From Candidatus Kapaibacterium sp. (GTDB lineage Bacteria > Bacteroidota > Ignavibacteria > Kapaibacteriales > UBA2268), in NCBI GenBank assembly GCA_963665665.1, contig OY762428.1:1984001-2048000 (forward strand): a DNA stretch of 64,000 nt, given 5' to 3'. The first letter of the stretch is position 1. Each line of letters opens with the position of its first letter. The notes under the pieces were generated by a model. It saw only the letters and a list, made by a program, of their open reading frames with translations. It ran no database searches and was not told where the DNA came from. Of this stretch, positions 15,646 to 35,534 are shown in pieces. The position numbers and the translations under genes were made by a program.

Positions 15646-15683
15646 TAATATAGTTTATAGTTTTTTATATCAAGGATTTAGAA

Positions 15684-16997
15684 ATGGCAGAATATCCCCC
15701 AAAAAAAGCACAGGGAAAATTTGACGAAAAACCCGGAGTTTATTGTGTAAAAGACCTCGGGCAGGCAGAAGAAGGAAAAAAATTAATTGACTGGGCAGAA
15801 TCAAGAATGCCTGTTCTGATGTCGCTCAGGGAAAAATACAAAGAAACAAAGCCTTTCAAAGGTTATAAAGTATCCGGTTGCCTTCATGTAACAAAGGAAA
15901 CAGCCGTACTTATCAAAACATTCCAGGAAGCAGGCGCTGAAGTTTCATGGTCAGGATGTAACCCGCTTTCAACAAATGATGCCGTTGCTGCTGCTCTTGC
16001 AGCAGATGGTACTTCAATTTATGCATGGTATGACAATGGCGAGGACTTTTACTGGTGTATCGAACGTACAATCGACACTCCTCCGCACCTGACTCTTGAT
16101 GACGGTTGCGACCTTATCAACACTGTTCATGAAGACCATATTGATATGGCTAAAAACTTTGTAGTTGGCGGTACAGAAGAAACAACAACTGGTATCCAGC
16201 GCCTTCGCGCCAGGGCTTCTGCCGGTAAACTTTACTATCCTGTTTATGCTGTTAACGATGCCGAAACAAAATGGGATTTTGATAATGTATATGGTACAGG
16301 CCAGTCCACTCTTGACGGTATCATGCGTGCTACATCAATCCTTTTTGCAGGTAAAACAGTAGTTGTTGCCGGACACGGCCACTGCGGTTCGGGTGTTGCC
16401 AAAAGGGCAAAGGGCCTTGGAGCAAACACAATCATTACAGAAGTTAAAGCAACTGCCGCTATCAAAGGTACACTTGAAGGCCACGAAGTAATGAAAATGG
16501 ACGAAGCTGCCAAGCACGGCGATGTTTTCGTTACAGCAACCGGCGTGAAAGATGTTATCCGCAAACAGCACTTCGAATCAATGAAAGACGGCGCTATTAT
16601 TTGCAATACAGGCCATTACGATGCGGAAATCAATATTCCCGAACTTGAGGAAGTATCTGTTTCCAAACGTACAATCAGGCCGAATTGCGAAGAATATACT
16701 CTGAAAAACGGCAGAAAAGTTTATCTGCTTGCACAGGGACGCCTTATCAACCTGGCAGCTGCCGAAGGACACCCGTCAGAAGTTATGGATATGAGCTTTG
16801 CTAATCAGTTCATGTCTCACCTCAGGCTGGTAGAAGCACACAAGGCAGGCAACAAACTTCCGAATGAAGTGCTTGATTTACCGGAAGAACAGGATCAGTA
16901 TATTGCAGGAACAAAACTTGATGCAATGCTGATGAACATTGACGAACTTACAGAAGAGCAGAAGAAATATATCACCGACTACAACGCTGGCACATAA
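15684..16997 (+). CDS. ahcY: S-adenosylhomocysteine hydrolase
   Basis: CLHVTKET, CNPLST, EETTTG, VNDAETK, DNVYGTGQS, NLAAAEGHPSEVMDMSF. Confidence 0.96.
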   Translation: MAEYPPKKAQGKFDEKPGVYCVKDLGQAEEGKKLIDWAESRMPVLMSLREKYKETKPFKGYKVSGCLHVTKETAVLIKTFQEAGAEVSWSGCNPLSTNDAVAAALAADGTSIYAWYDNGEDFYWCIERTIDTPPHLTLDDGCDLINTVHEDHIDMAKNFVVGGTEETTTGIQRLRARASAGKLYYPVYAVNDAETKWDFDNVYGTGQSTLDGIMRATSILFAGKTVVVAGHGHCGSGVAKRAKGLGANTIITEVKATAAIKGTLEGHEVMKMDEAAKHGDVFVTATGVKDVIRKQHFESMKDGAIICNTGHYDAEINIPELEEVSVSKRTIRPNCEEYTLKNGRKVYLLAQGRLINLAAAEGHPSEVMDMSFANQFMSHLRLVEAHKAGNKLPNEVLDLPEEQDQYIAGTKLDAMLMNIDELTEEQKKYITDYNAGT

Positions 16998-17020
16998 TTT
17001 CCAATAGCTCGTATTATTTT

Positions 17021-17055
17021 AACTCATCCGATGACTTGAAGTCATCAGATGAGTT
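17021..17055. repeat. REP-like palindrome/terminator, family 1
   Basis: AACTCATCCGATGACTTGAAGTCATCAGATGAGTT between convergent ahcY and a T9SS gene. Confidence 0.8.
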
Positions 17056-17069
17056 TTCTTATTCTCTTT

Positions 17070-19517
17070 CTACTTCTCCACCACTATCGGAATACTGTCC
17101 GTGATGCCGTTGTGACGGACGAGTATGAAATAAATGCCCGAGGGTACTGCCGAGCAGTTCCAGATGAATTCAGCCGAGGCTTTGTTTAGGTGGTTGACTT
17201 TAATATTTTCTTTTCCCTGAACTTTCTCGCCGGATAGATCGTAAACGCCCATAATTGATTCTTCAAGATCGAAGCTCATATCGTAGGATATCAGGGTTTT
17301 TATCAGGTTGCGGCCCGGCAAGGGATATGGATTCCCTGCATAGAAATGATTAGTGTAGTAAAGCTTTTCGGCTTGTATTTCAACCCCGACCGGGGCGTGT
17401 TCTTCTGTCATCATGCGGTAGTAGTTGAAGGGGCGCAGGCTGTCACTTAGCCCGACGAGAGACACATTGCCCTTGCATATAACGGAAGAAAATGTCGGGC
17501 GGCCATAATCCCAAGGGGCGTCCTCCCATTTCGTCAGGTCGTTTCGGTCAGTATTTTCAAGGAAAAGCTCCTCGCCGAGAATGTAGAACTTCCCGCTAAG
17601 TTCCATAAAGAAAATGCTGTCCAGCTCAGCGTTTTCGTAAAGATTATCGAATGTATTGCGTTTCCTGTCGTACATCAGTATTCGCGCGGGATATGTAGCT
17701 GCAAAGAAAACAGAATCCTTGTTCAGTTCGTATATCTGCTTAACGGCTAACGAATCCTCGATTTTGCAAATAGATGTTTTTGTTTTGCCGCTGTCATTAG
17801 TTTCAAAAACCTCGAAACTCGTAAAATTATGATACCTGTCTTCCTTTACCGAGCAAAACATAAGGAAATTCTCAAATTCTTCAGCCAGAATATGATGAAC
17901 ATAGAATAGAGAATCATAAGTTATATACCTGAAATTTTCAAAATTTTTATCAGTAAAGTAAAACATTGTGCCTGATTTTTCATATGAGTCTGTACAAATA
18001 AACATATAATTATTATTTATTTCAATAACATTGCTACCTTTTGCAAGTTTGTTTGAATTGCTGGAATAGAAATTATTTAATGAAAGTAATTTAAAAGTAC
18101 GTCCGGCATCCTGTGTAATTGCTATATTATTTTTATCTGTATCAACAACTTTTTCAAACCCAATAAAACCACTACCATCACTGCTAAAGTGCTTTACAAT
18201 CGGACCTAAATTCCATGATAGTAAACTATTGCTGGTATCTGACAAATAAGTAGGCTTAAATGAATTGCCATAATTGTAGCTGCTGTTTATCTCATTATAA
18301 TTTGATTTCGAATATCCACTTCCAAAATTAATATCATTATAAAATATATAAACAGAATCATTAATAATTTTTTCAGGAACTCCCGATAAAAAGGACAAAA
18401 GAGACCAGTTAGCACCTTTATCTGCCGAAATCATAAGCGAACGACTCATACCTGCTTTTACATATATTCCATTCTTTAATATATTACACTTTTTTGTAAA
18501 CAAGCCTGACGAAAGATCGTAACAACCTTTGTTTTCTGCTCCAATTGTTTGGTATTTATTTATATAATGCTTATTGATTAATTTGAAAGTGTCTTTAGGT
18601 ATTTCGCTATATATTTTTATCAGCATATTTGTTGATCCTTGGTCGTTGCCTTCCAGACTTACTCCATATAGATCTTCGTTATCAGTAAAATAAGTATTGT
18701 CATTAATCCAACGCTTAAGATATATCAATGAATCACTTCGATTCATGAACAGACTGTCCTGGAAAAAGAAATTCCAATTATTGTAATCATCGCTCATTCT
18801 GTATAAATTGCCTCCGATATTAAATATATTTTCATCCTTTATTTTATAAATATCATTCAGATTATAATATTCCGGATTGGTGGTATATACTTTCCCCTTC
18901 ATATTTATCATTTTGAAATTCTCAAGCTCTGATGTTAGTTTTGCAAAACCGTTGTTTTCTGATATAAGGTCTATTAGCAAATCGTTTTTTAATAAAAATA
19001 TATTCGAAACCGAATAATTTTCATAATATACTTTGGGCTTGTAATAGAATGAATCAATTTTGCTCTCAATTATTACGTTTTCAAAATGATTAATCAAATT
19101 CATATCTTTATCATAACGCAGAATACTTTTCAAACTTCTAACATAAACAAAATTGTCAGATATAATAATATTTATTAGTCGGTTTGAAGTATCAATCAAA
19201 ACATTAAACTGTTCCCAATTTAAGCCATTATTAACCGATCTGATAACATTACCGTAATTTACTACTCCCCACAAGGTATCATTATAATTAACAATTTTAT
19301 TAATCTGCCCTCTCTGAGCGATACATTTTTGCCTCCAGCTTTGCCCTTTATCGGTTGAAAGCAGGTAAGCCCCGTTAGTCCCGTAAGAAATAATGTTATC
19401 CCCCGCTCCAACGGCCCCGAGATAATGAATTTTCAGCGGCATCAGGTTGAAAGTTTCGGAATATGAATAAGTAAAGCAATTGAAAGTAATGATTAAAATA
19501 ATAGAAAAATATTTCAT
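17070..19517 (-). CDS. T9SS-secreted beta-propeller-like protein
   Basis: Signal peptide; STDKGQSW, SVNNGLNW, SADKGANW BNR motifs; CTD NPYPLP...SGIYFILV...IPIVVEK. Confidence 0.85.
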   Translation of the reverse strand: MKYFSIILIITFNCFTYSYSETFNLMPLKIHYLGAVGAGDNIISYGTNGAYLLSTDKGQSWRQKCIAQRGQINKIVNYNDTLWGVVNYGNVIRSVNNGLNWEQFNVLIDTSNRLINIIISDNFVYVRSLKSILRYDKDMNLINHFENVIIESKIDSFYYKPKVYYENYSVSNIFLLKNDLLIDLISENNGFAKLTSELENFKMINMKGKVYTTNPEYYNLNDIYKIKDENIFNIGGNLYRMSDDYNNWNFFFQDSLFMNRSDSLIYLKRWINDNTYFTDNEDLYGVSLEGNDQGSTNMLIKIYSEIPKDTFKLINKHYINKYQTIGAENKGCYDLSSGLFTKKCNILKNGIYVKAGMSRSLMISADKGANWSLLSFLSGVPEKIINDSVYIFYNDINFGSGYSKSNYNEINSSYNYGNSFKPTYLSDTSNSLLSWNLGPIVKHFSSDGSGFIGFEKVVDTDKNNIAITQDAGRTFKLLSLNNFYSSNSNKLAKGSNVIEINNNYMFICTDSYEKSGTMFYFTDKNFENFRYITYDSLFYVHHILAEEFENFLMFCSVKEDRYHNFTSFEVFETNDSGKTKTSICKIEDSLAVKQIYELNKDSVFFAATYPARILMYDRKRNTFDNLYENAELDSIFFMELSGKFYILGEELFLENTDRNDLTKWEDAPWDYGRPTFSSVICKGNVSLVGLSDSLRPFNYYRMMTEEHAPVGVEIQAEKLYYTNHFYAGNPYPLPGRNLIKTLISYDMSFDLEESIMGVYDLSGEKVQGKENIKVNHLNKASAEFIWNCSAVPSGIYFILVRHNGITDSIPIVVEK

Positions 19518-19607
19518 GATTAATCCTAAATAAGAATAAAATATTTATTATCAATAAAATTATCGAAGGATTGGAAAAATCCAATCCTCCATATTAAAAA
19601 ATACTAC

Positions 19608-20252
19608 TTATTCACAATGACTTATGACACCACGTACTTTTGAACATAAGATAGACCATGGTTTTGAACTGTATTCATATCCAGGAACTCCATCTCCATA
19701 TGGTTCTTTTACACATTCACCATTACCAGTTAAATAAGTATAATTCCAAGTTATAACGGGATGTGGCACACAATCTGGATCAGTATCGCAATCAGGGGTG
19801 CAATTACACATACATATTGTTAAATTTAAAGTACACCTTAAGTCACATGTTTCGCTTCTTGTATAATTCAAATACGTACCATTCCAAAATATGTCATAAC
19901 AAACGGGATCAGTAATTTCCAGAGTTAGTGAACCCTGATCGCATGGTTGCAACCCACAAAAATCGCCATGATTGTTATAAATGTAATTATACGTCGCATC
20001 CCAAATGGCATCTTCATATCCTGGACATACGTTGTTAACCGCCAAAATTTCAACTTTTGTAAAGAAATTGCCTGTTGGGCTACATGTGTAGCAAACAACT
20101 ACTTCTGCATCAGGACAACCAGGGACAAAATCTCCCACTGGTAAAGTTGTACAAATCCCAGGTGTAAGACAAGCCGCGCATGGATCCTGTGCCTGGCTTA
20201 AACTAAACGAAAATACTAATACTGCTATTACTAAAAATATTGTCTTTTTCAT
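19608..20252 (-). CDS. Secreted cysteine-rich protein (20 Cys), unknown function
   Basis: Sec signal MKKTIFLVIAVLVFSFSLSQA; 20 Cys in ~190 mature residues; co-oriented upstream of the T9SS gene. Confidence 0.8.
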   Translation of the reverse strand: MKKTIFLVIAVLVFSFSLSQAQDPCAACLTPGICTTLPVGDFVPGCPDAEVVVCYTCSPTGNFFTKVEILAVNNVCPGYEDAIWDATYNYIYNNHGDFCGLQPCDQGSLTLEITDPVCYDIFWNGTYLNYTRSETCDLRCTLNLTICMCNCTPDCDTDPDCVPHPVITWNYTYLTGNGECVKEPYGDGVPGYEYSSKPWSILCSKVRGVISHCE

Positions 20253-20482
20253 ATATCACACTATTTTGTTATTTTTACATTTTTTGAAAATTTCATTGCA
20301 TTTACTGCAAAGCAATACAGCAAACGTAAGAGCGTCTGAAAAACAAGGCACATTGTCCTCTAATATTCCTTTGCTTGGACGTAGAGTCAATGTGGGGTCG
20401 GGGCTTTCCCCGGCCTTTTTATTATTGCTGTCATGGGGATAATTTTTGTTACGGGCTTCTGTTCATCTCAACCTCCAATAAT

Positions 20483-20574
20483 ATTGGCTTAATAAAAGCA
20501 TTGGCTTAATAAAAGCATTGGCTTAATAAAAGCATTGGCTTAATAAAAGCATTGGCTTAATAAAAGCATTGGCT
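20483..20574. repeat. Perfect 17-bp tandem repeat (ATTGGCTTAATAAAAGC) x5.4
   Basis: Five exact units at 20483, 20500, 20517, 20534, 20551 plus a partial unit. Confidence 0.97.
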
Positions 20575-20631
20575 CCACTGTTTTCAATTTGAAATATAAC
20601 TTTGGATAAAGTTAATTAAAAGAAAATAAAA

Positions 20632-20673
20632 AAGCAAGAAAAAAAATCAATAATCTTAATTATTTTTCACAAG
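20632..20673 (-). promoter_or_regulatory. Conserved upstream element with TTGCTT -35 (TAACTT -10 follows after 17 nt)
   Basis: Near copy of 10267-10306. Confidence 0.6.
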
Positions 20674-20710
20674 TATTTCTATTTTTATAACTATATTACT
20701 TGTCAGGATA

Positions 20711-21057
20711 TTATAAAAAAACATCCGATGACTTTAAGTCAGGATAGGTGTCGATAAAATCAAATATATCCCTACCGAGCGAAACGTCGTCATTATCGTA
20801 AGTATTAAACGGTTCCGCGTCAAAATCCTGATCATCGTAACAGTCATAGAGATTATGCAACAATCCGGCCATTTGTGATATTTTCGTTTTCCTTATCCAC
20901 TCTGCTTGAGCTTCTGCCGGCGGAAGCGTATTATCATAACCGGCTACTCTTGGAAAACGTCTTCCTTCCTGGTCATACCTGAGTCTTCCCATTCACCGTA
21001 AGAATATGAAAACACTGATAATAGGAATATAAGGCTTAGGGTTAATTGCTTTTTCAT
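20711..21057 (-). pseudogene. Truncated fifth array copy (signal peptide to GEWED, stop at 20944) joined out of frame to an unrelated ~90-codon fragment
   Basis: 21057-20983 matches the sibling signal-peptide sequence; translates MKKQLTLSLIFLLSVFSYSYGEWEDSGMTRKEDVFQE*; another frame (20711-20992) continues RYDQEG...DVFL. Confidence 0.8.
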
Positions 21058-21069
21058 TGGATTGCCTTT

Positions 21070-22416
21070 CTATTTTATAATTATCATTTTCTTGCTGGCA
21101 GCAATTCTGCCGTTTATCTCTATTGCATATACATATACTCCTGTAGGAAATTCCCCGGCGTCAATAGTAATGGCGCAGGGCCTGCCAAAACATGCTTCGG
21201 TTTCTTTTATTATACTTTCGCCCCTTTCGTCGCTGATAATCAACCGGACGCTGCCGCTGTAATTATCGGGAATATAATACATTATCTCGGTTTCATCCGA
21301 AAAGGGGTTGGGGTTGTTCTGGTAAAGGAGGATATCGCTGCCGTTCATTTCCTCTCCTTCTATTCCCATTACTTCGTCAACTATACAATCGGTTAGTTCG
21401 TGGCGAAAATACCTGTTTGTCCAGAATTTCATTGACAGGATGGCATAATTATTATTAAAAATCGGAACATAAGGTTCCATATCTCCCGGTATAATCTTTT
21501 GCCATGTAAATCCCTGGTCTGTTGATAAAAATAATCCAGCCGATGAGTTGATATTATTAACTAAAGCGCTTGCATATAAATTTTTATTGCAACTCGAAAA
21601 TTGATTCAAACAAGTATAATAGTGTTTGCCTTCAATAACACCATTATTGAATTCATGAATCTTTTCCCAGCTCATGCCATTATTTATAGTGGAAAACAGG
21701 TAGGGTCCAATCGATAAAAAAACTTTGTTTTCTATGTTTGTAATTCCGCGTTGAAGATAATGCCTATAAGTATTAAACACATTTCTAATCTCTTGATTTG
21801 TTATAATTTTCCAGTCAAGGCCGTTATATGAAAACAATATTTCCCTTGTTGTAAGTGCGAATAATCCCTTGCCCAGTGCTCCAAAGCCTTTGTTCGTAGC
21901 TAATATCTCGTCCGAATTTCCGGCATTGTTTCCGTAATCTCGGAAAGTCCAGGTAGTTCCGCCATCTGCGGAATAATAATAACCAATATATTTTTCTCGC
22001 AACATATATAATGTATCATTTTGCGCGGTAATCTGCTTTATTCTAAAAAAATAGCAATCCTCGTTATTATCATCTTTCAATACAATTCTTTCGAAAGTAT
22101 TACCCTTATTTTTAGAAACAAAACATCTTCCGCTCGTTGTCTGAACTATCAGGCTTTCGTTAATAAATTGCAAATATTCAAGAGATTTATCATTATATTC
22201 ATTTTTAAATACCAAAAACTGCTCCCATGATTCGCCATTATCAGGGGAATAATATATTGTACTATCCATCGCAATATAAAGAGTATCCGAATAGCTAGCC
22301 ATATTGTAATATAATGGGAATTTCGGAAAATTTAAAGAAAGGTCTTCCCATTCACCGTAAGAATATGAAAACACTGATAATAGGAATATTAGGCTTAATG
22401 TTAATTGCTTTTTCAT
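21070..22416 (-). CDS. T9SS-secreted BNR beta-propeller-like protein, array copy D
   Basis: Signal peptide; SPDNGESW, SADGGTTW, STDQGFTW; CTD LYQNNPNPFS...KKMIIIK. Confidence 0.9.
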   Translation of the reverse strand: MKKQLTLSLIFLLSVFSYSYGEWEDLSLNFPKFPLYYNMASYSDTLYIAMDSTIYYSPDNGESWEQFLVFKNEYNDKSLEYLQFINESLIVQTTSGRCFVSKNKGNTFERIVLKDDNNEDCYFFRIKQITAQNDTLYMLREKYIGYYYSADGGTTWTFRDYGNNAGNSDEILATNKGFGALGKGLFALTTREILFSYNGLDWKIITNQEIRNVFNTYRHYLQRGITNIENKVFLSIGPYLFSTINNGMSWEKIHEFNNGVIEGKHYYTCLNQFSSCNKNLYASALVNNINSSAGLFLSTDQGFTWQKIIPGDMEPYVPIFNNNYAILSMKFWTNRYFRHELTDCIVDEVMGIEGEEMNGSDILLYQNNPNPFSDETEIMYYIPDNYSGSVRLIISDERGESIIKETEACFGRPCAITIDAGEFPTGVYVYAIEINGRIAASKKMIIIK

Positions 22417-22428
22417 TGGATTGCCTTT

Positions 22429-23778
22429 CTATTTAATAATTATCATTTTTTTACTCGCGGCTATTCTGCCGTTTATCTCTATTGCATATACATAAACGCC
22501 TGTAGGAAATTCCCCGGCGTCAATAGTTATAGCGCAGGGCCTGCCAAAGCATGCTTCGGTTTCTTTTATTATACTTTCGCCCCTTTCATTGCTGATAATC
22601 AACCGGACGCTTCCGCTGTAATTATCGGGAATATAATACATTATCTCGGTTTCATCCGAAAAGGGGTTGGGGTTGTTCTGGTAAAGGAGGATATCGCTGC
22701 CGTTCATTTCCTCCCCTTCTATTCCCATTACTTCGTCAACTATACAGTCGGTAAGTTCATAGCGGTAATATCTATTTGTCCATAATCCCATTGCCAAGAT
22801 TGCATAATTGTTACAAAAAATCGGGACAGAAGGGTCCATTTCTTCCGGTATAATTTTCTGCCAGGTAAATCCTTGGTCTGACGAAGAGTAAATTCCGACG
22901 GAATTATGAAAAGTATTAATGCACGCCTTAGCATATAACACATCATTGCAACTTGAAAATTCAGTCAAAATTGTGTCATACTGTATGCCTTCAATTACAG
23001 GCGATTCGAACTCATGAATCTTTTCCCAGCTCATACCATTATTAATGGTGGAAAACAGGTGGGGTCCTATAGATAAAAAGACTTTGTTTTCAATATTAAT
23101 AATTCCGCGTTGTCTATGATGGCCATAAGTATTTAATAAATTTTTAATCTCTTTGTTAGTTATTATTTTCCAGTCCAGGCCGTTAAATGAAAACAATATT
23201 TCCCGTATTGTAAGCGCAAACAAACCCTTGCCCAGGGTTCCAAAGCCTTTGTTAGTAGCTAATATCTCGTCTGAATTTCCGGCATTTATTTTGTAATCTG
23301 CGAAAGTCCAGGTAGTTCCGCCATCTGCAGAATAATAGTAACCATTATAAACGTCTTCTCTTATAAGATATAAAGTATCATTTTGGCTCACAATACTTTT
23401 TATACTAAAATAATACCAATCCTCGTTATATTCATCTTTCAGAATTATCCTTTCATAAGAATTGCCGATATCTTTTGAAATATAACATCTTCTTTTCGTA
23501 GTTTGGATTATCAGGCTTCCATTTATAAATTGAAAGTATTCAATGAATTTATCATCATATTCATTTTCCAAATTTAAAAAATATAGCCAGGAATTGCCAT
23601 TATCTGAACTGTAATATATTGTATCTTCAATTGCAATATAAAGAGTATCTGAGTAACTTATCATATTATATTCTATAGGGAATTCAGAAAAATTATTAGT
23701 GAGGTCTTCCCATTCGCCGTAAGAATATGAAAACACTGATAATATGAATATAAGGCTTAGGGTTAATTGCTTTTTCAT
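22429..23778 (-). CDS. T9SS-secreted BNR beta-propeller-like protein, array copy C
   Basis: Paralog most similar to D; same signal peptide and CTD. Confidence 0.9.
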   Translation of the reverse strand: MKKQLTLSLIFILSVFSYSYGEWEDLTNNFSEFPIEYNMISYSDTLYIAIEDTIYYSSDNGNSWLYFLNLENEYDDKFIEYFQFINGSLIIQTTKRRCYISKDIGNSYERIILKDEYNEDWYYFSIKSIVSQNDTLYLIREDVYNGYYYSADGGTTWTFADYKINAGNSDEILATNKGFGTLGKGLFALTIREILFSFNGLDWKIITNKEIKNLLNTYGHHRQRGIINIENKVFLSIGPHLFSTINNGMSWEKIHEFESPVIEGIQYDTILTEFSSCNDVLYAKACINTFHNSVGIYSSSDQGFTWQKIIPEEMDPSVPIFCNNYAILAMGLWTNRYYRYELTDCIVDEVMGIEGEEMNGSDILLYQNNPNPFSDETEIMYYIPDNYSGSVRLIISNERGESIIKETEACFGRPCAITIDAGEFPTGVYVYAIEINGRIAASKKMIIIK

Positions 23779-23790
23779 TGGATTGCCTTT

Positions 23791-25119
23791 CTATTTTATA
23801 ATTATCATTTTCTTGCTGGCAGCAATTCTGCCGTTTATCTCTATTGCATATACATATACTCCTGTAGGAAATTCCCCGGCGTCAATAGTAATGGCGCAGG
23901 GCCTGCCAAAACATGCTTCGGTTTCTTTTATTATACTTTCGCCCCTTTCGTCGCTGATAATCAACCGGACGCTGCCGCTGTAATTATCGGGAATATAATA
24001 CATTATCTCGGTCTTATCCGAAAAGGGGTTGGGGTTGTTCTGGTAAAGGAGGATATCGCTGCCGTTCATTTCCTCCTCTTCTATTCCCATTACTTCGTCA
24101 ACTATACAATCGGTAAGTTCGTGGCGAAAGAATGAAGAACTATATAAATCCCAGCGTACTGCTACGAAAAGGTAATCATTATTTACTGCAAGATTAAAAG
24201 GTTCTATGATTCCCGGTATAAGGTTCTTCCATGTTTTACCGCTATCGGCAGAGCATAACAAACCGGCAGATTCAGATCTTTGAGCACAATAATCAGCGGT
24301 TGCATAAAGAATGTTATCGCAGGAGGCTAATCTCGTTATTATTGTATCGTAATCGCGGCCTTCAACTGTTTTTGTTTCAAACTTGCTTACAGAATCCAAA
24401 TAATGCCCCTGGGCGATTGTTTTAAATAAGTATGGCCCAACGGAAAGAAAAACCATGTCTCCCATTTTACCCATAGTTACATCATCATTAAAAATATATT
24501 TTTTCCATTTATCATTCAATTCAAGCGAACTGACCAACTTCCAGTTTTCAAGGTCTTCAGACATATATACTTCTTGATATAACAAAGCAAATACGCCGTC
24601 TCCAGTTGTTTCAATATCATAAATAATTGTTTCATATTGTTTAACGGTCTCATTATTCCAGGTTTTTCCCATATTTTCCGAGATATATAATCCATCATTT
24701 GCTGCTAATAAAATATTACCTTCCCAAAAATTTAAACATTTGTAATTATAAAAAAAGTAAACATCATCATTATTATTTTTTGTAATAACTCTTTCAAAAC
24801 TATCTCCCATATCGCGGGTTATAAAAAACCTGTTCAGATTTGTAATTAGAAAGAATACGCCGTCAAAATATTTATAATCTATTATTGCAGTGTCATCAAA
24901 TTCCGTAACTAAAGTAAATAACGTTTCCCAAGTTTCCCCGTTATCCGTACTTTGATATAAGTTCATACCGCCCGTAGTATATAAGTAATTGTTTTCAGGA
25001 GATATATATACTTTGCCGGGATTCTTTTGAAATAATTCCGTTACATTTTCCCATTCACCGTAAGAATATGAAAACACTGATAATAGGAATATTAGGCTTA
25101 GGGTTAATTGCTTTTTCAT
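23791..25119 (-). CDS. T9SS-secreted BNR beta-propeller-like protein, array copy B
   Basis: STDNGETW, SADSGKTW; C-terminal ~270 aa identical to copy A. Confidence 0.9.
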   Translation of the reverse strand: MKKQLTLSLIFLLSVFSYSYGEWENVTELFQKNPGKVYISPENNYLYTTGGMNLYQSTDNGETWETLFTLVTEFDDTAIIDYKYFDGVFFLITNLNRFFITRDMGDSFERVITKNNNDDVYFFYNYKCLNFWEGNILLAANDGLYISENMGKTWNNETVKQYETIIYDIETTGDGVFALLYQEVYMSEDLENWKLVSSLELNDKWKKYIFNDDVTMGKMGDMVFLSVGPYLFKTIAQGHYLDSVSKFETKTVEGRDYDTIITRLASCDNILYATADYCAQRSESAGLLCSADSGKTWKNLIPGIIEPFNLAVNNDYLFVAVRWDLYSSSFFRHELTDCIVDEVMGIEEEEMNGSDILLYQNNPNPFSDKTEIMYYIPDNYSGSVRLIISDERGESIIKETEACFGRPCAITIDAGEFPTGVYVYAIEINGRIAASKKMIIIK

Positions 25120-25131
25120 TGGATTGCCTTT

Positions 25132-26460
25132 CTATTTTATAATTATCATTTTCTTGCTGGCGGCTATTCTGCCGTTTATTTCAATTGCATATACATATAC
25201 GCCTGTAGGAAATTCCCCGGCGTCAATAGTTATGGCGCAGGGCCTGCCAAAACATGCTTCGGTTTCTTTTATTATACTTTCGCCCCTTTCGTCGCTGATA
25301 ATCAACCGGACGCTGCCGCTGTAATTATCGGGAATATAATACATTATCTCGGTCTTATCCGAAAAGGGGTTGGGGTTGTTCTGGTAAAGGAGGATATCGC
25401 TGCCGTTCATTTCCTCCTCTTCTATTCCCATTACTTCGTCAACTATACAATCGGTAAGTTCGTGGCGAAAGAATGAAGAACTATATAAATCCCAGCGTAC
25501 TGCTACGAAAAGGTAATCATTATTTACTGCAAGATTAAAAGGTTCTATGATTCCCGGTATAAGGTTCTTCCATGTTTTACCGCTATCGGCAGAGCATAAC
25601 AAACCGGCAGATTCAGATCTTTGAGCACAATAATCAGCGGTTGCATAAAGAATGTTATCGCAGGAGGCTAATCTCGTTATTATTGTATCGTAATCGCGGC
25701 CTTCAACTGTTTTTGTTTCAAACTTGCTTACAGAATCCAAATAATGCCCCTGGGCGATTGTTTTAAATAAGTATGGCCCAACGGAAAGAAAAACCATGTC
25801 TCCCATTTTACCCATAGTTACATCATCATTAAAAATATATTTTTTCCATTTATCATTCAATTCAAGCGAACTGACCAACTTCCAGTTTTCAAGGTCTTCA
25901 GACATATATACTTCTTGATATAACAAAGCAAAAACGCCGTCGCTTGTTGTTTCAATATCAAAAATATTTGAATTAAATTCCTTAACATTTATATAATACC
26001 AGTTTTTTCCCAAGTCATCAGATACAAATATTCCATAGTATGTTGATAAAAGAATATGATTATTCCAAAAATCAATTTTATTATGATAATTTAAAAAATA
26101 AATATCTTCATTGTTTTTATTTAATACAACTCTCTCAAAACTATTACCCATATTTCTGGTTATATATAAACTGCTTCTGTCAGTAATTAGAAAGAAAATA
26201 TCTTGATATACTTGAATATAAATAATTGCATAATCATCATATTCAGTTTCTAAGGAAAACAGATTGTTCCAACTTTCTCCGTTATCTGTACTTTGATAAA
26301 TATCAAGGCCATCGGAATGATACATATAATTATTATCTGTATCAATGGCTATTCTTCCCGGATGAACCTGGTTTAATTCAGAAACATTTTCCCATTCCCC
26401 GTAAGAATATGAAAACACTGATAATAGGAATATTAGGCTTAGGATTAATTGCTTTTTCAT
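25132..26460 (-). CDS. T9SS-secreted BNR beta-propeller-like protein, array copy A
   Basis: Start at 26460 (MKKQL) after GGGAG; same architecture as siblings. Confidence 0.9.
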   Translation of the reverse strand: MKKQLILSLIFLLSVFSYSYGEWENVSELNQVHPGRIAIDTDNNYMYHSDGLDIYQSTDNGESWNNLFSLETEYDDYAIIYIQVYQDIFFLITDRSSLYITRNMGNSFERVVLNKNNEDIYFLNYHNKIDFWNNHILLSTYYGIFVSDDLGKNWYYINVKEFNSNIFDIETTSDGVFALLYQEVYMSEDLENWKLVSSLELNDKWKKYIFNDDVTMGKMGDMVFLSVGPYLFKTIAQGHYLDSVSKFETKTVEGRDYDTIITRLASCDNILYATADYCAQRSESAGLLCSADSGKTWKNLIPGIIEPFNLAVNNDYLFVAVRWDLYSSSFFRHELTDCIVDEVMGIEEEEMNGSDILLYQNNPNPFSDKTEIMYYIPDNYSGSVRLIISDERGESIIKETEACFGRPCAITIDAGEFPTGVYVYAIEINGRIAASKKMIIIK

Positions 26461-26820
26461 AAATACTCCCATAAATTATGTTGTTTGTATTTATCCGGAA
26501 AAATGAAATAACCGGATAAATCATCTAACTGCCGCGCATACAATACACAACAGTTGTGAACTAATTAAGTTTCAATTCTTTCAATATCAATTAAAAAGCA
26601 AATGATGCGGCAATTATCCAAAGCCTGTAATCAATAACCCTTTATCAATCCTCAATTTCCAAATTCCAAAAATATTCTCCTTTTTCCCCCGTAGTGTCGT
26701 AAAGGCATTTTCGGGAGCAGTAATACGCATCAACCATAAAGTAAATAAAAGAATTGATATTTGCAAGTAAATATACAAAGAATATATATTCATAAAACAC
26801 AGCTCACCGTTTGCTTAAAA

Positions 26821-28650
26821 TCACTTCTTATTTACCATCATCATGCTCTGCAGGGCAAGCTGATAGTCCGGTTTTACTTTCAGCGCCATACCGAATGCTT
26901 CCCTGGCGGTTGTTGTGTCCTGAACAAACATGGCATAGCGGCCAATATTTGTCAGGTTCATAGCGGCGGTTTCCGTTATGCCTTCGTCAAGGTATGATTT
27001 TTCCTCAGGAATTGAAGCAATGAACTTATCAAGATTAATATTCTTACAGGAGGCTTTATAAACGCCTTTCTTTTCCAGCCTGAAAGCAAATCCCTGGGGG
27101 ATTTTTTCATAATTTTGCGCCACCTGCTGTTCGGATTGCAATACATCCATTGTGATATAAACCGGACGCGTTTCAATATTTTTATCGATAAAGGAATTCA
27201 GCATCCTGACAAAATTAGCCTGAATGCTGGCAGGATTGTAAGGTTTATCCGCCTCGAACAGTTCAAGGTCCCGCGAGAAAGCATCAATTTCCGGACGGCT
27301 CTTGTCTGTTATTTCCGGGTACCAACGGGACAACTGCGGCAAAAACCATGTGCGGCGCAGGAGTTCTTTCTCAATCAGCGCCACGTCCGGCCTAAGGCCT
27401 TCCACTCTTTGCTTATACCAGAAAGCCGAACACCAGAAGTCCCACTGGGCGGATATAATAATAGCATTCTCATCTAAGTTGTCGACAAGTATATTTGTGT
27501 ATTCGGAAACAAGGTAGTCTCCGGATTCATCGTTTTCTGTATAATTCATTACTGCTGAAAGCAGCGGTATAACAAATAAGGCAGGCAGCAAAGCTTTTTT
27601 CTTTTGCCAGATAAAGTAAAACCCGGCGCTCATGAAAAGAAGCAAAGCAATTATTGCAAGCGAGAAATAAGCATCAATATCATGGATGGAATAATTCATA
27701 GTATAGAAAAGGCATGTAAGAACCAGCAGAAGCATGAATAGAAACAGTTGCTTTGACTTCTTCCATACCTGCCAGAAACCGGCAAGTAAGGGCAGAATGC
27801 CTATCCAGCCGAACTGCAATGGCAGAGCACTGAAAAATTTACCAAGATTTTTTCCCCATACTGAGCTGTCCGAAAACATCCATACCTGGTACTGCTTGCC
27901 CTGCACGTGATACATAAATTTATCAAATCCCCGGGAAACCCATCCCCAGTTGAACTCGGGCTGCGAAGCACTACGCAGCGGCAGGTAGATATATAGGCTG
28001 ATGCCGATAAGCAGGGGGATGAATAACAAAAGCAATAACTTAATATTTGCCGTGCTGAAATCTGCTTTCTCTCCCGGTTTGAAGAAAAATATAAACAGCA
28101 GGGCAGGAACAAGAAGAATTGCCGTCATGTGGTTGGCAAATGTAAGGCCGAGCATTAGAGCCGCAACAAAAAGCATATTGACGGATTTTTCAAATAATCC
28201 CCTGAAAAGAAAATATAATACAAGGTTGAACATGAGGAGCTGGAGGCTGTAAACTTCGAGAGAAACGCCCTGCGCCCATATCGTAAGCGCGAATGAATAC
28301 GCAAGCGACGATGCCAGCGCAATGATGCTGTGATCGTCATCTTTGCCAGAAATATACTTTATCAAATTTCCGGAAAGCAGGTAGAACACCAGCCCCGAGG
28401 CTGCAGTAACAAACGCGGCGAATATATTCAGCGCAAAGATCTGCGATCCGGGCAATGGCAGATAAGTCCATAAATGACCAAGGATGGTAAACAGCGGATA
28501 GCCCGTGGGGTGAGCTATGCCAAGAGTGGAACATACAGCCGCAAGTTCGCCGCTGTCGGTATATTGCACGTCCGGCGCAAGCGTCAGCAAATAAATAATA
28601 AAAGGCAAAATAAACGAAAGGCTCAAAAATATAGGTTTTAGCTTCTTCAT
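26821..28650 (-). CDS. DUF2723/TMEM260-like membrane glycosyltransferase (GT-C) with C-terminal TPR-like region
   Basis: DSGEL...GIAHPTGYPLF, EVYSL, YLPLRS motifs; multiple TM segments. Confidence 0.85.
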   Translation of the reverse strand: MKKLKPIFLSLSFILPFIIYLLTLAPDVQYTDSGELAAVCSTLGIAHPTGYPLFTILGHLWTYLPLPGSQIFALNIFAAFVTAASGLVFYLLSGNLIKYISGKDDDHSIIALASSLAYSFALTIWAQGVSLEVYSLQLLMFNLVLYFLFRGLFEKSVNMLFVAALMLGLTFANHMTAILLVPALLFIFFFKPGEKADFSTANIKLLLLLFIPLLIGISLYIYLPLRSASQPEFNWGWVSRGFDKFMYHVQGKQYQVWMFSDSSVWGKNLGKFFSALPLQFGWIGILPLLAGFWQVWKKSKQLFLFMLLLVLTCLFYTMNYSIHDIDAYFSLAIIALLLFMSAGFYFIWQKKKALLPALFVIPLLSAVMNYTENDESGDYLVSEYTNILVDNLDENAIIISAQWDFWCSAFWYKQRVEGLRPDVALIEKELLRRTWFLPQLSRWYPEITDKSRPEIDAFSRDLELFEADKPYNPASIQANFVRMLNSFIDKNIETRPVYITMDVLQSEQQVAQNYEKIPQGFAFRLEKKGVYKASCKNINLDKFIASIPEEKSYLDEGITETAAMNLTNIGRYAMFVQDTTTAREAFGMALKVKPDYQLALQSMMMVNKK

Positions 28651-29024
28651 GCCAATTCCTGAATAATAGGGAATAATCAATTAACACAACATGGCAAAAA
28701 TAACAAAGCTGATGGATATATGAAACTTATTTAGGAATTTTGAAATTTTCCGAAATTTTCACTCAGGTATTTAATTAAAAAGAAATTTGGATAATTCTAT
28801 CCGGTTGAAATTATCGCTTCTCTTCTGAAATATTCAAAGAATTAAACTATTATTGAAATAAAGTCTGTTGTTAATTGTCTGTCTGACATAATTTTGTGAG
28901 TGTTTTTCTGAGTTAAAGTCTGATTTAACTTTGTTTAGATTAGTTAGTTAAAAACCTCAGATGATTACTTTGCATTTAACAAAATCATTACAAGTAATGA
29001 AAATATCAGGATAAAGAGATTAAC

Positions 29025-29405
29025 ATGACAGCAACAACGGCAGCAATAATTTTCGCAATTTTTTCAGGAGTAATCATGGTGTTCCAGGCATGCCTTGCAG
29101 CGGGACTGCCATGGGGAGCAGCATCAATGGGAGGAAAATACCCCGGAAAATATCCGCCTAAAATGAGATTTGTAGCTGTTTTAAATATATTTATTCTTGG
29201 ATTTATGGCACTTATTGTTTTATCAAGAGCCGAAGTGATACTTTCCGCAATGAGGGGCTTTTCGGAAATTGCAATATGGGTTGTTGTTGTATTCTATTTT
29301 GTCAGTACAATATTGAATACCATCACACCAAGCAGAATAGAAAGAATATGGGCGCCGGTAGCTTTCATATTATTGGTATCAGGTATTATTGTTGCACTGA
29401 GTTAA
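29025..29405 (+). CDS. Small 4-TM membrane protein
   Basis: Four hydrophobic segments; GLPWG..MGGKYPG loop. Confidence 0.75.
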   Translation: MTATTAAIIFAIFSGVIMVFQACLAAGLPWGAASMGGKYPGKYPPKMRFVAVLNIFILGFMALIVLSRAEVILSAMRGFSEIAIWVVVVFYFVSTILNTITPSRIERIWAPVAFILLVSGIIVALS

Positions 29406-29520
29406 CGCCTTCAAACCTGGAAAATTTGTTTTATTAACTGTTAATCAGTACGTAAATTAAAATAAATGATTTCTGTTATCGTTGTTTCGCATTAATAATT
29501 AATGTTATAATGAGGCTATA

Positions 29521-29979
29521 ATGTATCAGAAAATTATTCCACTATTAATTTTTGTGGTTGCCATATTTCTTTCCTCATGTTCGGAAGATGATCCCGTCGA
29601 ACATCATGAGGAGCATTTCGAAGCTGACGGTATTATCCTGTATCTGGATAACGAGGAGTACCTGAGAATCTACCAGGGGCAGATTGAATCCGAACGAACA
29701 TCATTCGAGATGACAAACAGCGAAACACTGGGAATCTTTACATTGAAATTTATTGATGATCACGGAGATTTGATTGATCCCCCGGATGATTTGGATAAAA
29801 ATCTTTCCATTCAGATTGATGATGAAGGCATTGCAAGCTATACTATCGACAGTAATAACCGTTGGGGATTTAGCATTACAGCTATTAGCATTGGTGTCAC
29901 ACAGATTGAAATAAGGGTGCAGCACGAAGACCACTTTGGTTTCCGTACTCCAAAAATAGATCTGAATGTGAGCGAGTAA
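29521..29979 (+). CDS. His-rich lipoprotein, putative metal-binding partner of the TonB receptor
   Basis: Lipobox LSSC; EHHEEH and QHEDH motifs; 1 bp upstream of the TBDR gene. Confidence 0.75.
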   Translation: MYQKIIPLLIFVVAIFLSSCSEDDPVEHHEEHFEADGIILYLDNEEYLRIYQGQIESERTSFEMTNSETLGIFTLKFIDDHGDLIDPPDDLDKNLSIQIDDEGIASYTIDSNNRWGFSITAISIGVTQIEIRVQHEDHFGFRTPKIDLNVSE

Positions 29980-29980
29980 G

Positions 29981-32197
29981 ATGCCGAAATTGTTGAATGG
30001 CCTGGTAGCGATAGTTGTCTTTATAATTACAGTTACTGCCGATCTATACTCCGGCGTTATAACTGTTGAAGGGCAGATCGTTGACTCTGAAAGCGGAAAT
30101 CCTGTTGATAATGCTGTCATCAGGATACCTTCCGCTAAAAAGACGATTATCACTGATGCTGACGGCTTTTTCACAATTGACAGCATTAGCCCCGGAGAAT
30201 ACCACGTGAATTTTTCCCGGCTGGGATATAAAAGTTTCCAGAAACATTGTATAATAAGCGCCGATTCTCTTTGCGGTATGGCGATAAAAATGACACCGAT
30301 GGGTGTTAGTTTTCCAACCGTTGTGGTATCAGGAAAAAAAGGAGAGCTTAAATTTGTTGAAGTCAGCGGAAATAAAACCGACCTGTCCGGCAGGAAACTT
30401 CAGAAAGTAATGGGGCAAAGCCTTGCCTCTACCTTGAAGAACGAAGCCGGAGTATCAGTCAGAAGCCTCGGGCCGGCACCTTCAAGGCCGGTTATTCGGG
30501 GGCTTGGCGGCAGCAGGGTGGTCATTGCCGAGGATGGCGTTCAGTCAACCGATCTTTCAGCAACTTCACCTGATCATGCCGTTACAGTAGATCCGTTCAC
30601 TCTTGATGAAATCTCTATCATGAGGGGTCCTGAAGCTGTTCAGTATTCCACTTCTCTTGCCGGGGGAGTTGTGAACGCCACGAGGAATGAAATACCCATG
30701 GATATTCCCGAGAAAATACTTCTCGGTTTGGGAGGTTTTTACGAATCTGCTAATCAGGGCAAGCTTCTCGCTGCTTCTATTGAAGGGCCTTACAATAAAT
30801 TTGCTTATAATACTGATATATCATACCGGAATACCGCTGATATGACCTCGCCGGATAAAAAGCTGGATAATACATCGATCAGGACTCTTAATTATAATGC
30901 CGGGATTGGGTTTGAAGGAGATGGCTGGGTAATAGGTGCAGGATTCAGGGAGTTCGATTCCGAGTATGGTATTCCCGGAGGATTTGTTGGTAGTCACCCG
31001 AACGGCGTTGATATTAAAATGCTGAAAAGAGCTGCCGGGATAAAGGGCATTTATCATTTCCACGGATCATTTATCGACAACCTTAAGTTCAGCGCCGAAA
31101 GGTCTTATTACAAGCATACGGAATATGAATCGGATTCGACTATCGGCGCGGAATTTGTGATCAGGGATTACATTGCAAATATCAGTTTGCATCAGAGAAA
31201 AGGAAATATTTTTGAAAACGGAAGTATGGGATTATTCTTTAATTATAAAGACCACAAAATGGGAGGCTATGTTTTCACTCCCCCGACCGAGGCATTTACT
31301 GCTGCAGCTTTCATTTTCGAAGAATATAAATTCGGAGATAATTTCATTCAGTCTGGCCTGCGCTATAGTTTTGATACATATATCCCAAATAAAAATTCCC
31401 TGATAACCGAGAAAGAAAGCCTGGAACAGAGGGATTTCCATTCATTCGCTTTTTCAATTTCCGCAGCGCGTGAACTATTCGATGACTATTTCTTCGGTAT
31501 AAATCTTTCCAGGTCTGTACGTCCGCCTTCTATCGAAGAACTATTCAATAAAGGGCCGCACCTTGCCGCATATTCCTACGAGAGAGGAAATCCTGATCTG
31601 GATGGGGAAAATGGCATGTCTTACGAAATATTTACAGGCTATCGCACGGATAAGTTCAGTCTGAACCTAAACGCCTTTTATAATCATTTTGATTATTATA
31701 TAATTCCCAGGAATACTGGTGATACTAATTATTCTGTACTCCTGCCAATTTATATGTCCGAAGGAGTCGAGGCTGAGTTCATGGGTTTCGAACTTGAAGG
31801 TTCTTTGTCTGTCGGTGGTTTTGATATCAGCGCCGACGCCGCTTACACCCGGGGTGAAATAGTTGATGAAAATTCTCCGCTGCCAATGATTCCGCCGTTT
31901 AAATCAAATCTTGAGATGGAATACAATATAAGCAGGATGAAATTCGGCGTACGCTTCGAATATGCCGCCCAACAGGACAGGGTTGACCGTTTCGAGGAAA
32001 AAACAGATTCTTATTTCCTGACAGGTCTTTTTGGGCAATATACCTTTACATCCGGTGGATTTATTCATAATGTTTCGCTGAATATCGACAATCTTTTCAA
32101 CAGGGAATACCGTAACCACTTGTCCAGGATAAAATCTATCATGCCGGAGCCGGGATTCAACATCAGGTTTGTGTACCGGGCACTCGTGGAATTATAA
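29981..32197 (+). CDS. TonB-dependent receptor (ZnuD-like) with N-terminal CarboxypepD_reg-like domain
   Basis: RPVIRGLGG...SPDHA plug, RGPEA, EELFNKGPHLA, NLFNREYRNHLSR...PG.N C-terminus. Confidence 0.88.
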   Translation: MPKLLNGLVAIVVFIITVTADLYSGVITVEGQIVDSESGNPVDNAVIRIPSAKKTIITDADGFFTIDSISPGEYHVNFSRLGYKSFQKHCIISADSLCGMAIKMTPMGVSFPTVVVSGKKGELKFVEVSGNKTDLSGRKLQKVMGQSLASTLKNEAGVSVRSLGPAPSRPVIRGLGGSRVVIAEDGVQSTDLSATSPDHAVTVDPFTLDEISIMRGPEAVQYSTSLAGGVVNATRNEIPMDIPEKILLGLGGFYESANQGKLLAASIEGPYNKFAYNTDISYRNTADMTSPDKKLDNTSIRTLNYNAGIGFEGDGWVIGAGFREFDSEYGIPGGFVGSHPNGVDIKMLKRAAGIKGIYHFHGSFIDNLKFSAERSYYKHTEYESDSTIGAEFVIRDYIANISLHQRKGNIFENGSMGLFFNYKDHKMGGYVFTPPTEAFTAAAFIFEEYKFGDNFIQSGLRYSFDTYIPNKNSLITEKESLEQRDFHSFAFSISAARELFDDYFFGINLSRSVRPPSIEELFNKGPHLAAYSYERGNPDLDGENGMSYEIFTGYRTDKFSLNLNAFYNHFDYYIIPRNTGDTNYSVLLPIYMSEGVEAEFMGFELEGSLSVGGFDISADAAYTRGEIVDENSPLPMIPPFKSNLEMEYNISRMKFGVRFEYAAQQDRVDRFEEKTDSYFLTGLFGQYTFTSGGFIHNVSLNIDNLFNREYRNHLSRIKSIMPEPGFNIRFVYRALVEL

Positions 32198-35281: not shown

Positions 35282-35534
35282 AATTATCAAAAATCAGATC
35301 TCGAAATTACAGGTAATTATACAACCTGCCAAGGTAAGTTGCCAGAATTTGCTGAGTTTGTAGGGGTTTTAATTATAAATGGAATGAAAATTGATATTTT
35401 GAATCCGAATAATTTTATACTACTGTGTGAGAATATCAGCTAAACAAAAATTAATTTTCATTTTATTTGAATATTAATTATTTTATAAGGTTGTGAAAAC
35501 AACTCTTTTATAAAACATTTTTTTGGGGTTTTTT

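Follow-up and report, generated by a model that had tools for sequence, protein, structure and literature searches.

Tandem genes whose ends are nearly identical and whose middles have diverged raise the question of whether the shared ends serve as a device for shuffling the middles or simply reflect ordinary duplication and recombination. We addressed this question at a locus of Candidatus Kapaibacterium sp. (assembly GCA_963665665.1, contig OY762428.1) within a stretch of 64,000 nucleotides (nt), positions 1,984,001 to 2,048,000 of the contig, hereafter the window, whose numbering is used below unless a genome position is indicated. At 21070-26460, the open reading frame (ORF) map revealed four complete genes (G1 to G4) in tandem on the minus strand, each with a constant start, a variable middle (payload), and a constant tail. 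The original prediction viewed them as type IX secretion system (T9SS) cargo genes forming a cassette system that diversifies secreted proteins of a binding, inhibitor, or immunity type. Our analysis indicates that the locus is probably a tandem array of four paralogous genes shaped by ordinary concerted evolution and not a dedicated cassette-shuffling system.

The four genes encode proteins of 442 to 449 amino acids (aa), in agreement with the earlier description of four head-to-tail genes of about 445 aa, to which the minus-strand orientation is now added. All open with a common signal peptide of 24 to 25 residues and close with a tail of 111 codons, and the 12-nt spacer after the stop codon is identical at all four places (after G1, G2, G3, and G4). 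The near-identical signal peptides and the constant 12-bp spacer noticed originally were thus borne out, the signal peptide having an identical layout in all units. Together, the 111 tail codons with the stop, the spacer, and the next gene up to codon 25 form a junction repeat of 423 nt, very close to the repeat of about 420 bp first proposed across one gene end and the next gene start. This junction is present in four copies (J1 to J4) with six pairwise identities of 94.1 to 98.3%, J3 being the most divergent with 15 private sites. A repeat search gave spacings of 1359, 1362, and 1341 nt, in a register that agrees with the alignment. In the alignment, the DNA upstream of the G1 ATG is unrelated to either the spacer or the tail. 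The open frame of G1 extends to 26472, and the protein collection holds only the 442-aa form. The genes and junctions are as follows.

25132..26460, minus strand: G1, 442 aa, with a signal peptide, BNR/Ycf48-like propeller, linker, and tail resembling a T9SS C-terminal domain (CTD); first gene of the array
23791..25119, minus strand: G2, 442 aa, same subfamily as G1
22429..23778, minus strand: G3, 449 aa, second subfamily
21070..22416, minus strand: G4, 448 aa, second subfamily
25045..25467, minus strand: junction J1, 423 nt, G1 tail, stop, 12-nt spacer, and first 25 codons of G2
23704..24126, minus strand: junction J2, 423 nt, G2 tail, spacer, and G3 signal peptide; 98.3% identical to J4
22342..22764, minus strand: junction J3, 423 nt, G3 tail, spacer, and G4 signal peptide
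20983..21405, minus strand: junction J4, 423 nt, G4 tail, spacer, and a fifth signal-peptide copy
26386..26460, minus strand: G1 signal-peptide segment, where likeness to the other units begins exactly at the ATG

Sequence exchange between the units

Nonsynonymous (dN) and synonymous (dS) divergence, estimated by NG86, clearly separated payloads from tails. Between the two subfamilies, dS was 1.7 to 3.9 in the payload (saturated, and not computable for one pair) versus 0.05 to 0.29 in the tail, and within subfamilies it was 0.68 to 1.18 versus 0.10 to 0.31. This comparison, which had been suggested along with the original prediction, therefore revealed a collapse of tail dS relative to the payload, for which dN/dS was 0.19 to 0.46. 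Divergence was also far from uniform along the genes. Between subfamilies, payload nucleotide identity was 38 to 62% over 30-codon windows and jumped sharply to 94 to 100% from alignment column ~346. Selection on the protein is insufficient to account for this pattern, since synonymous sites are conserved in the tail and the non-coding spacer is identical. The informative sites of the junction were in conflict as well: three group J1 with J2 and J3 with J4 (positions 50-114), five group J1 with J3 and J2 with J4 (positions 237-375), and none groups J1 with J4 and J2 with J3. These mutually incompatible groupings constitute a four-gamete conflict.

The clearest trace of exchange is an identical tract shared by the first two genes.

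25232..25932, minus strand: 701-nt tract of G1 (codons 177-410), identical to 23891-24591 in G2

This tract spans half of the payload, the linker, and most of the tail, whereas in the adjoining N-terminal payload G1 and G2 differ at 34% of nucleotides and at 79 of 150 aligned codons. It is a recent gene-conversion tract. Comparison with a second assembly indicated when it arose. The G1 ortholog encoded there (P0004) differs from G1 at only 2 positions in residues 1-193 and at 27 in residues 194-369, a clustering of 27 of the 29 differences with a binomial P of 2.5e-9. Hence, over the 701-nt tract the paralogs G1 and G2 are identical, while the G1 ortholog differs at 27 of 176 residues there and at 0 of the ~180 payload residues that precede it. 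Because the P0004 differences are concentrated where G1 equals G2 in our genome, the 3' half of G1 was overwritten from G2 after the strains split. Neighboring proteins of the second assembly differed by only 0.7-2.2%, with 3/448 for the G4 ortholog P0154 (all in the tail), 3/381 for MetK, 16/738 for the TonB-dependent receptor, and 16/815 for an 815-aa protein.

Sequence exchange between units has therefore occurred, as seen from the dS values, the site conflict, and the 701-nt tract. Of the original idea that crossovers at the junctions move whole payloads, the exchange between units was retained and the dedicated system was not. Indeed, since the tract reaches deep into the payload, conversion tracts ignore cassette borders.

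These observations can be accommodated by a simple sequence of events. The array would have grown by tandem duplication, and the 12-nt gene spacing would have merged the sorting domain and the signal peptide into one continuous 423-nt homology block. Non-reciprocal gene conversion, presumably by RecA-type homologous recombination, would hold this block near-identical and at times extend into the payload, as over the 701-nt tract. Unequal crossover between blocks could add or remove whole units, a step that an assembly with only G1-like and G4-like proteins would fit. The payloads would be too diverged to recombine between subfamilies and would be kept by purifying selection as distinct surface or secreted binding modules. 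The locus would then exemplify how secretion signals shape duplicated cargo genes: the parts that must be kept become a shared recombination substrate, which homogenizes itself and permits unit-sized gain or loss. From the ortholog comparison, one conversion is younger than the divergence of two closely related strains. For annotation, a caution is that short-read assemblies of T9SS-rich genomes can break or collapse where gene ends are nearly identical, and that tail trees and payload trees will conflict.

The same mosaic was found elsewhere in the genome, which is one contig of 5.46 Mb. There, local direct repeats of 120 nt or more, 300-8000 nt from each other and at least 88% identical, form 174 pairs, of which 77 are of junction-like size. 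Three of these, all at this locus, span a stop and the next start, and one other pair (genome positions 3419346/3421112) does so in one copy only. We selected five other tandem pairs in which only the gene ends were repeated. In four of the five, Por_Secre_tail was above its cut-off in both members, and all four were mosaic, with, for example, 39-60% identity in the payload versus 93-97% in the tail, or 96/94% at the start, 47-85% in the middle, and 96% in the tail. The intergenic gaps of these mosaic pairs are 125-217 nt, without a compact junction. As the same mosaic occurs in more loosely spaced pairs, the compact junction of the array follows from tight gene spacing and is not a separate device. 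Tandem expansion with partial homogenization is a genome-wide habit here. As a separate observation, many of the 174 repeat pairs lie in rows of three to six CTD-bearing genes, for example at ~1.37-1.386, 3.952-3.959, and 0.637-0.652 Mb.

Mosaic divergence of tandem paralogs by interlocus gene conversion is a general process that has been modeled, according to a recent preprint (bioRxiv 10.1101/2025.10.29.685298). The array resembles it in its mosaic of homogenized and diverged segments, in the drop of dS in converted parts, and in paralogs that are closer than orthologs over the tract. There is no essential difference from that general process; what is special here is that the homogenized 3' end and the next 5' end are contiguous.

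Propeller payloads and probable sorting tails

At the protein level, G1 and G2 are 81% identical and G3 and G4 79%, with 49-52% across the two groups. The two subfamilies described originally were therefore retained, although the divergence between the middles of G1 and G2 is only partial owing to the 701-nt identical tract. All four proteins matched Pfam PF15902 (Sortilin-Vps10) at 41.3-44.1 bits against a cut-off of 33 (42.0 bits for G1), while PSII_BNR stayed below its cut-off (16.8-21.4 bits versus 27), with three of the four genes matched at E up to 0.1. Columns of the S-x-D-x-G-x-x-W type (Asp-box motifs) were invariant at no fewer than three places across the four payloads. Structure prediction, proposed with the original reading, was performed with AlphaFold (AF2). 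From a 21-row alignment, the model of G1 residues 25-442 reached a predicted local distance difference test score (pLDDT) of 79.9 and a predicted template-modeling score (pTM) of 0.67; the alignment was required, as a single-sequence AF2 run of G4 gave a pLDDT of only 40.8. The G1 model has an all-beta body, a short, acidic, and disordered linker (residues 313-328), and a small C-terminal beta-sandwich. In a Foldseek search against the PDB, its top matches were PorZ (5m11), Ycf48, and the sortilin Vps10 domain, Ycf48 having a TM-score of 0.61-0.67 normalized to the target and a root-mean-square deviation of 4.5-5.5 A. Sequence matches in the PDB were to the BNR repeats of GH74 enzymes, sialidases, and Ycf48, those to GH74 enzymes and sialidases covering repeat stretches only. 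From sequence and model together, the payload is predicted to be a single Ycf48/sortilin-like BNR beta-propeller of roughly seven blades, which may bind a ligand.

The payloads are under purifying selection, their NG86 dN/dS values giving no positive selection at the whole-gene level. In architecture, the array genes have the same length and layout as Atlas clusters of BNR/Ycf48-like proteins of ~410-475 aa with Por_Secre_tail. Their feature scores were 0.96-0.97 with clusters whose members carry PF18962 in 93-100% of cases, many with PSII_BNR or Sortilin-Vps10. According to the Atlas clusters, this class of single propeller with Por_Secre_tail is common in Ignavibacteriota, Bacteroidota, and Cloacimonadota. 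Compared with that class, the array payloads have no close sequence relative beyond this genome and one other assembly. A profile search of 1.84 billion representatives returned 16,871 matches at E up to 0.001. Besides the array's own cluster, the 150 matches listed were large multi-propeller proteins matched in repeat stretches, and no functional lead for the payloads emerged among them. The locus does not point to a new mechanism, and the function of this single-propeller class of T9SS cargo is the more interesting question.

Putative export signals are found at both ends of the proteins. The N-terminal Sec signal peptide, assessed by inspection, begins with basic residues, continues with a hydrophobic core, and ends in small residues, followed by a conserved acidic/aromatic motif. 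In the model, the C-terminal region after the linker forms six to seven strands with a pLDDT of 78-88, and the best Foldseek match, PorZ, is itself a CTD-bearing T9SS protein. Tails 44-55% identical to those of the array close proteins of 115-1224 aa in three genomes of the same family (G011, G018, and G020). The genome encodes T9SS machinery, represented by the one component searched (SprA_N, 162.7 bits in a frame of 2323 aa), and contains at least 150 Por_Secre_tail matches above the cut-off. Given its position and predicted fold, the similar tails on unrelated proteins, SprA, and the many CTDs, the tail is likely a divergent T9SS-type C-terminal sorting domain, and the array proteins would be exported by Sec and then sorted by the T9SS. 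Among the copies, the tail proteins differ at 0-4 of 111 residues.

Copy number and competing explanations

The protein collection holds, from the second assembly, one G1-like protein (P0004) and one G4-like protein (P0154), both full length. In clusters at 90% identity, G1 and G4 have a second member each, while G2 and G3 have one member each. Against 5.8 billion proteins, the G4 payload gave three hits (G4, G3, and one at 21% identity) and the G2 payload eight (G2, the G1 cluster, and six at 20-31% identity). No array-protein fragments of 30-170 aa were found among 128 candidates, sizes of 171-242 aa being outside the search. In the second assembly, a contig of 131,851 nt carries the two array genes (G1' and G4'), MetK, and the TonB-dependent receptor. 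These records suggest that an orthologous array there shares both ends with ours but comprises two units rather than four, and a single crossover between J1 and J3 would yield such an array with G1-like and G4-like genes only. Loss or gain of units by unequal crossover we infer, as we do the direction of the copy-number change. At the protein level, the tail of P0004 carries one G3-only residue and two G3/G4 residues and lacks another G3-only residue, which bears on the question of whether this tail is the G1/G3 hybrid expected after a J1 x J3 deletion.

Public runs were examined as contigs. Runs X5 and X6, from a differently labelled organism, contain a G1-like form, a G4-like form, and the G1-type upstream flank with few changes. 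They had no contig at least 85% alike at 22753-23007 and 23369-23599 of G3 or at ~24756-25047 of G2, which at a depth of 3-7 was not counted as absence. Run X7, which has the same species label, contained almost none of the words, and this too was given no weight. In a marine metagenome (run X1), a 346-nt piece matched G3 at 97% identity, and a gene start of the G1/G2 type was identical to neither G1 nor G2. Run X2 (0.86 of words) had separate contigs for all four payload-specific parts, with depths of 40.5, 41.1, 46.6, and 46.8, as well as a G1/G2 shared piece at 79.2 and a tail piece at 115, depth not being equal to copy number. Junctions with other payloads were found neither in 41 related genomes, which gave tail- or repeat-level matches only, nor in species-representative genome contigs, where a related locus was also not found. 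The best payload-covering matches in the 41 genomes were 33% identical over 241-448, 27% over 8-250, and 26% over 7-337. JGI metagenome contigs yielded only one distant tail hit (44% identity).

Several results weigh against the proposed history of T9SS cargo genes evolving in concert. The tail dS of the pair G3-G4 (0.31) is only about 2.5-fold lower than its payload dS (0.76), so homogenization was uneven. Neither within-culture length variants nor novel joints came to light, all four joints in X2 being explained by the paralogs G1, G3, and G4. The two-unit array was read from protein records, in which an assembler may have collapsed four units. Comparison of 14500-32197 with the second assembly placed the 214-aa and 815-aa neighbors, here located between MetK and the array, on a different contig of 111,494 nt; this split may reflect a rearrangement, the absence of the module at this site, or two different assemblies. 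As for secretion, all four tails scored below the curated cut-offs of both Por_Secre_tail (PF18962; 19.1-20.5 bits versus 27, with 20.5 for G1) and TIGR04183 (13.3-14.9 bits versus 23), the E-values of about 6e-4 to 6e-2 indicating weak similarity. T9SS export is for this reason something that we infer only. Of the T9SS CTD of about 107 aa reported originally, the constant tail was upheld, at 111 codons, and membership in a curated family was not.

A further trace of past change, missed in the original prediction, lies downstream of G4, where the spacer is followed by a fifth copy of the signal peptide (20983-21057) and then by a broken frame.

20944..21057, minus strand: fifth unit, a 37-aa ORF with an intact signal peptide, 12 unrelated codons, and a stop
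20723..20983, minus strand: cargo-gene fragment, a 93-aa ORF in a frame different from that of the fifth signal peptide

The fifth signal peptide is 89% identical to G4 residues 1-28, and the 93-aa ORF begins within a few bases of the repeat end. This ORF shares 48 of 87 residues with aa 461-541 of a protein encoded at G000:C1:3194048-3196471, which is 807 aa long and has an HExxH-type motif and a CTD (3194108-3194305); no Pfam or NCBIfam family was matched in the 93-aa ORF. By its sequence, the fifth unit is a dead gene start that has been joined to part of a different cargo gene, and would be either the scar of a deletion or what is left of a fifth gene whose payload was not a propeller. The joint of signal peptide and downstream fragment is the same in runs X5 and X6, and it is therefore older than the strain split.

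These observations also fit a more ambitious version of events, in which the 423-nt block acts as a population-level exchange module by which whole payload genes, including non-propeller ones like that of the fossil fifth unit, are gained, lost, or swapped between strains. We regard this as unlikely. If true, the repertoire of T9SS surface propellers, which might act as variable receptors or decoys, would differ from strain to strain, and selection would favor the 12-nt spacing for leaving every exchanged unit export-competent.

The cassette system of the original prediction, in which the junction is kept as a recombination module for excising, duplicating, or swapping payloads within and between strains, is more doubtful still. 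Programmed cassette systems (pilE/pilS, vlsE, integron cassettes) have repeated borders around variable coding segments, and they depend either on silent donor cassettes or on a site-specific recombinase and its attachment sites. Here, no silent donors were found in the genome and no recombinase among the 18 proteins scanned and, unlike in those systems, each unit is a complete gene. A search with the junction DNA gave five matches in the whole 5.46-Mb genome, all within the array, so the genome-wide search suggested with the original prediction found no copy elsewhere. The payload search recovered the four genes, the fifth signal peptide, and 12 other weak matches (E 2.5e-6 to 1e-3; 10 over the tail region and 2 over BNR repeats); by both searches, there are no silent cassettes in the genome. 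The statement that no recombinase is nearby also held: among the 18 neighboring and array proteins scanned at 5.7-38.2 kb of the window (with ORFs shorter than 150 aa included only within 17-30 kb), none was a recombinase, invertase, or reverse transcriptase. What would speak for a cassette system is the contiguity of the 423-nt block with units that are complete genes, the G1-like and G4-like pair in the related assembly together with such forms at both array ends in X5/X6, the fifth signal peptide joined to a non-propeller cargo fragment, as if another payload class had sat there, and the G3-like piece and unmatched G1/G2-type start of the marine run. Set against these are the absence of extra junctions and payload relatives in the genome, of junctions with other payloads in the genomes and contigs searched, and of a recombinase among the 18 proteins, as well as the payload dN/dS without whole-gene diversifying selection, the conversion tracts that cross the cassette border, and the same mosaic in tandem pairs with 125-217-nt gaps. 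With no silent store, no recombinase in the proteins scanned, a single fold, purifying selection, deep tracts, and the same mosaic elsewhere, the idea of a dedicated cassette system diversifying immunity-type proteins is not supported.

The claim that no described example exists was likewise too strong, given the KLIKK protease arrays of Tannerella forsythia. As described there, T9SS cargo genes whose CTDs are nearly identical lie in a cluster that a close relative lacks, and the repeats were misassembled in the first deposited genome (PMC4404884). A second report, in the context of potempins, describes the payloads as proteases of different catalytic classes, encoded by genes that alternate with inhibitor-lipoprotein genes, one upstream of each (PMC9890683). 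Like the KLIKK genes as portrayed there, those of our array are clustered T9SS-type cargo with nearly identical tails (0-4/111 differences). Unlike them, the four payloads share one propeller fold with no intervening inhibitor genes, the 12-nt spacing makes tail and next signal peptide one repeat, and the tail ends differently and scores below the Pfam cut-off. Surface virulence factors of P. gingivalis provide another parallel, being T9SS cargo in which rearranged domains and exchanged alleles have generated diversity (PMC5266723). There too, cargo genes swap modules by homologous recombination or gene conversion, with strain differences. The P. gingivalis genes are dispersed, large, and multi-adhesin, exchanging adhesin domains and alleles, whereas here a compact four-gene array exchanges sorting-signal ends. 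For the contiguous tail-spacer-signal repeat itself, no description was found in a limited literature search, which cannot show that none exists.

The difference between two and four units could alternatively be due to import, G2 and G3 having entered together from another strain through junction recombination with no deletion in the relative. G2 and G3 are adjacent, so that one event is enough in either direction, and the metagenome run with G3-like (97%) and G1/G2-type sequences implies other carriers. However, G1/G2 and G3/G4 are mutual closest relatives, suggesting old in-place duplications, and the G1-like protein of the related strain is still 85% identical to G2 in its C-terminal half, versus 47% in its N-terminal half, indicating earlier contact with a G2-like donor in the relative's lineage too. 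On balance, we find import quite improbable.

Strong purifying selection on the signal peptide and sorting domain, acting without recombination between copies, would agree with a tail dN/dS of 0-0.16 and with tail differences that are nearly all synonymous (6/6 for G1-G2), yet this reading has a very small chance of being right and is already contradicted. Protein selection cannot hold synonymous sites at a dS of 0.05-0.31 when the payload reaches 0.68 to >3, nor does it explain a non-coding spacer identical in 4/4 copies, incompatible junction site patterns, or the replacement of the G1 3' half. Finally, although repeats as long as these (423-701 nt) classically lead to misassembly, as the T. 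forsythia KLIKK loci initially illustrated (PMC4404884), an assembly artefact is barely credible because the genome is a single contig, the second assembly encodes full-length G1-like and G4-like proteins, and the four payloads are present in X2 contigs at similar depths (40.5-46.8) independently of the finished assembly.

Presumed promoter region, flanks, and downstream modules

Under the preferred explanation, concerted evolution of a tandem array, the four genes are probably one operon, judging from their arrangement, co-transcribed from the only sizeable non-coding gap of the array.

26473..26820, minus strand: intergenic region of 348 nt upstream of G1, the presumed promoter region of the four-gene operon

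In a promoter and terminator scan, promoter-like sites numbered 45 versus 30.2 expected, which is uninformative as the host may not use promoters of the sigma-70 type. An Rfam scan of 19500-27000 gave two matches, both far below the gathering score and taken as chance. The array is flanked by genes for MetK, AdoHcy hydrolase, a TonB-dependent receptor, and a TMEM260-like glycosyltransferase. The last of these, directly upstream of the array (26821-28680, minus strand), is a 619-aa TMEM260-like/PMT_2 membrane protein (108.7 bits), and we entertain the thought that it modifies the secreted propellers.

The G+C content is 0.23-0.39 in the payloads and 0.44 in the tails, for a genome mean of 0.386. 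The region 17800-26700, comprising the array and two downstream genes, is mostly of low G+C content (~0.23-0.40, with tails at 0.44), while its flanks are at 0.42-0.50. We considered the low-G+C payloads as possible foreign DNA and dropped this idea, as the contrast is modest and housekeeping genes make up the flanks.

Downstream of the array, a conserved non-coding element of ~450 nt (20300-20751, minus strand) has other copies at G000:C1:3011217-3011724, 1268376-1268749, 1913111-1913500, and 1982794-1983172, with 75-85% identity over the full length between copies. The five copies immediately precede paralogous two-gene modules, each encoding a Cys-rich secreted protein (~200-214 aa) and then a BNR-type protein of 570-815 aa. 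The element contains a GC-rich hairpin and a 17-nt tandem repeat, whose full or partial copies vary from ~1 to 8 among the five elements, and matched no Rfam family. A long structured leader is one possibility for this element, and a promoter containing a variable-number repeat is another. In the module next to the array, the Cys-rich protein (19608-20252, minus strand; 214 aa) matched no Pfam or NCBIfam family. It has nine differences from its counterpart in the second assembly, all at signal-peptide positions 4-18, as if signal peptides had been swapped between the five paralogous modules. On the plus strand, two adjacent Laminin_G_3 genes (35523-36767 and 36922-38163; 414 and 413 aa) form another mosaic tandem pair, in which a stretch of 747 nt is 90% identical (G000 2020024-2020770 / 2021420-2022166).

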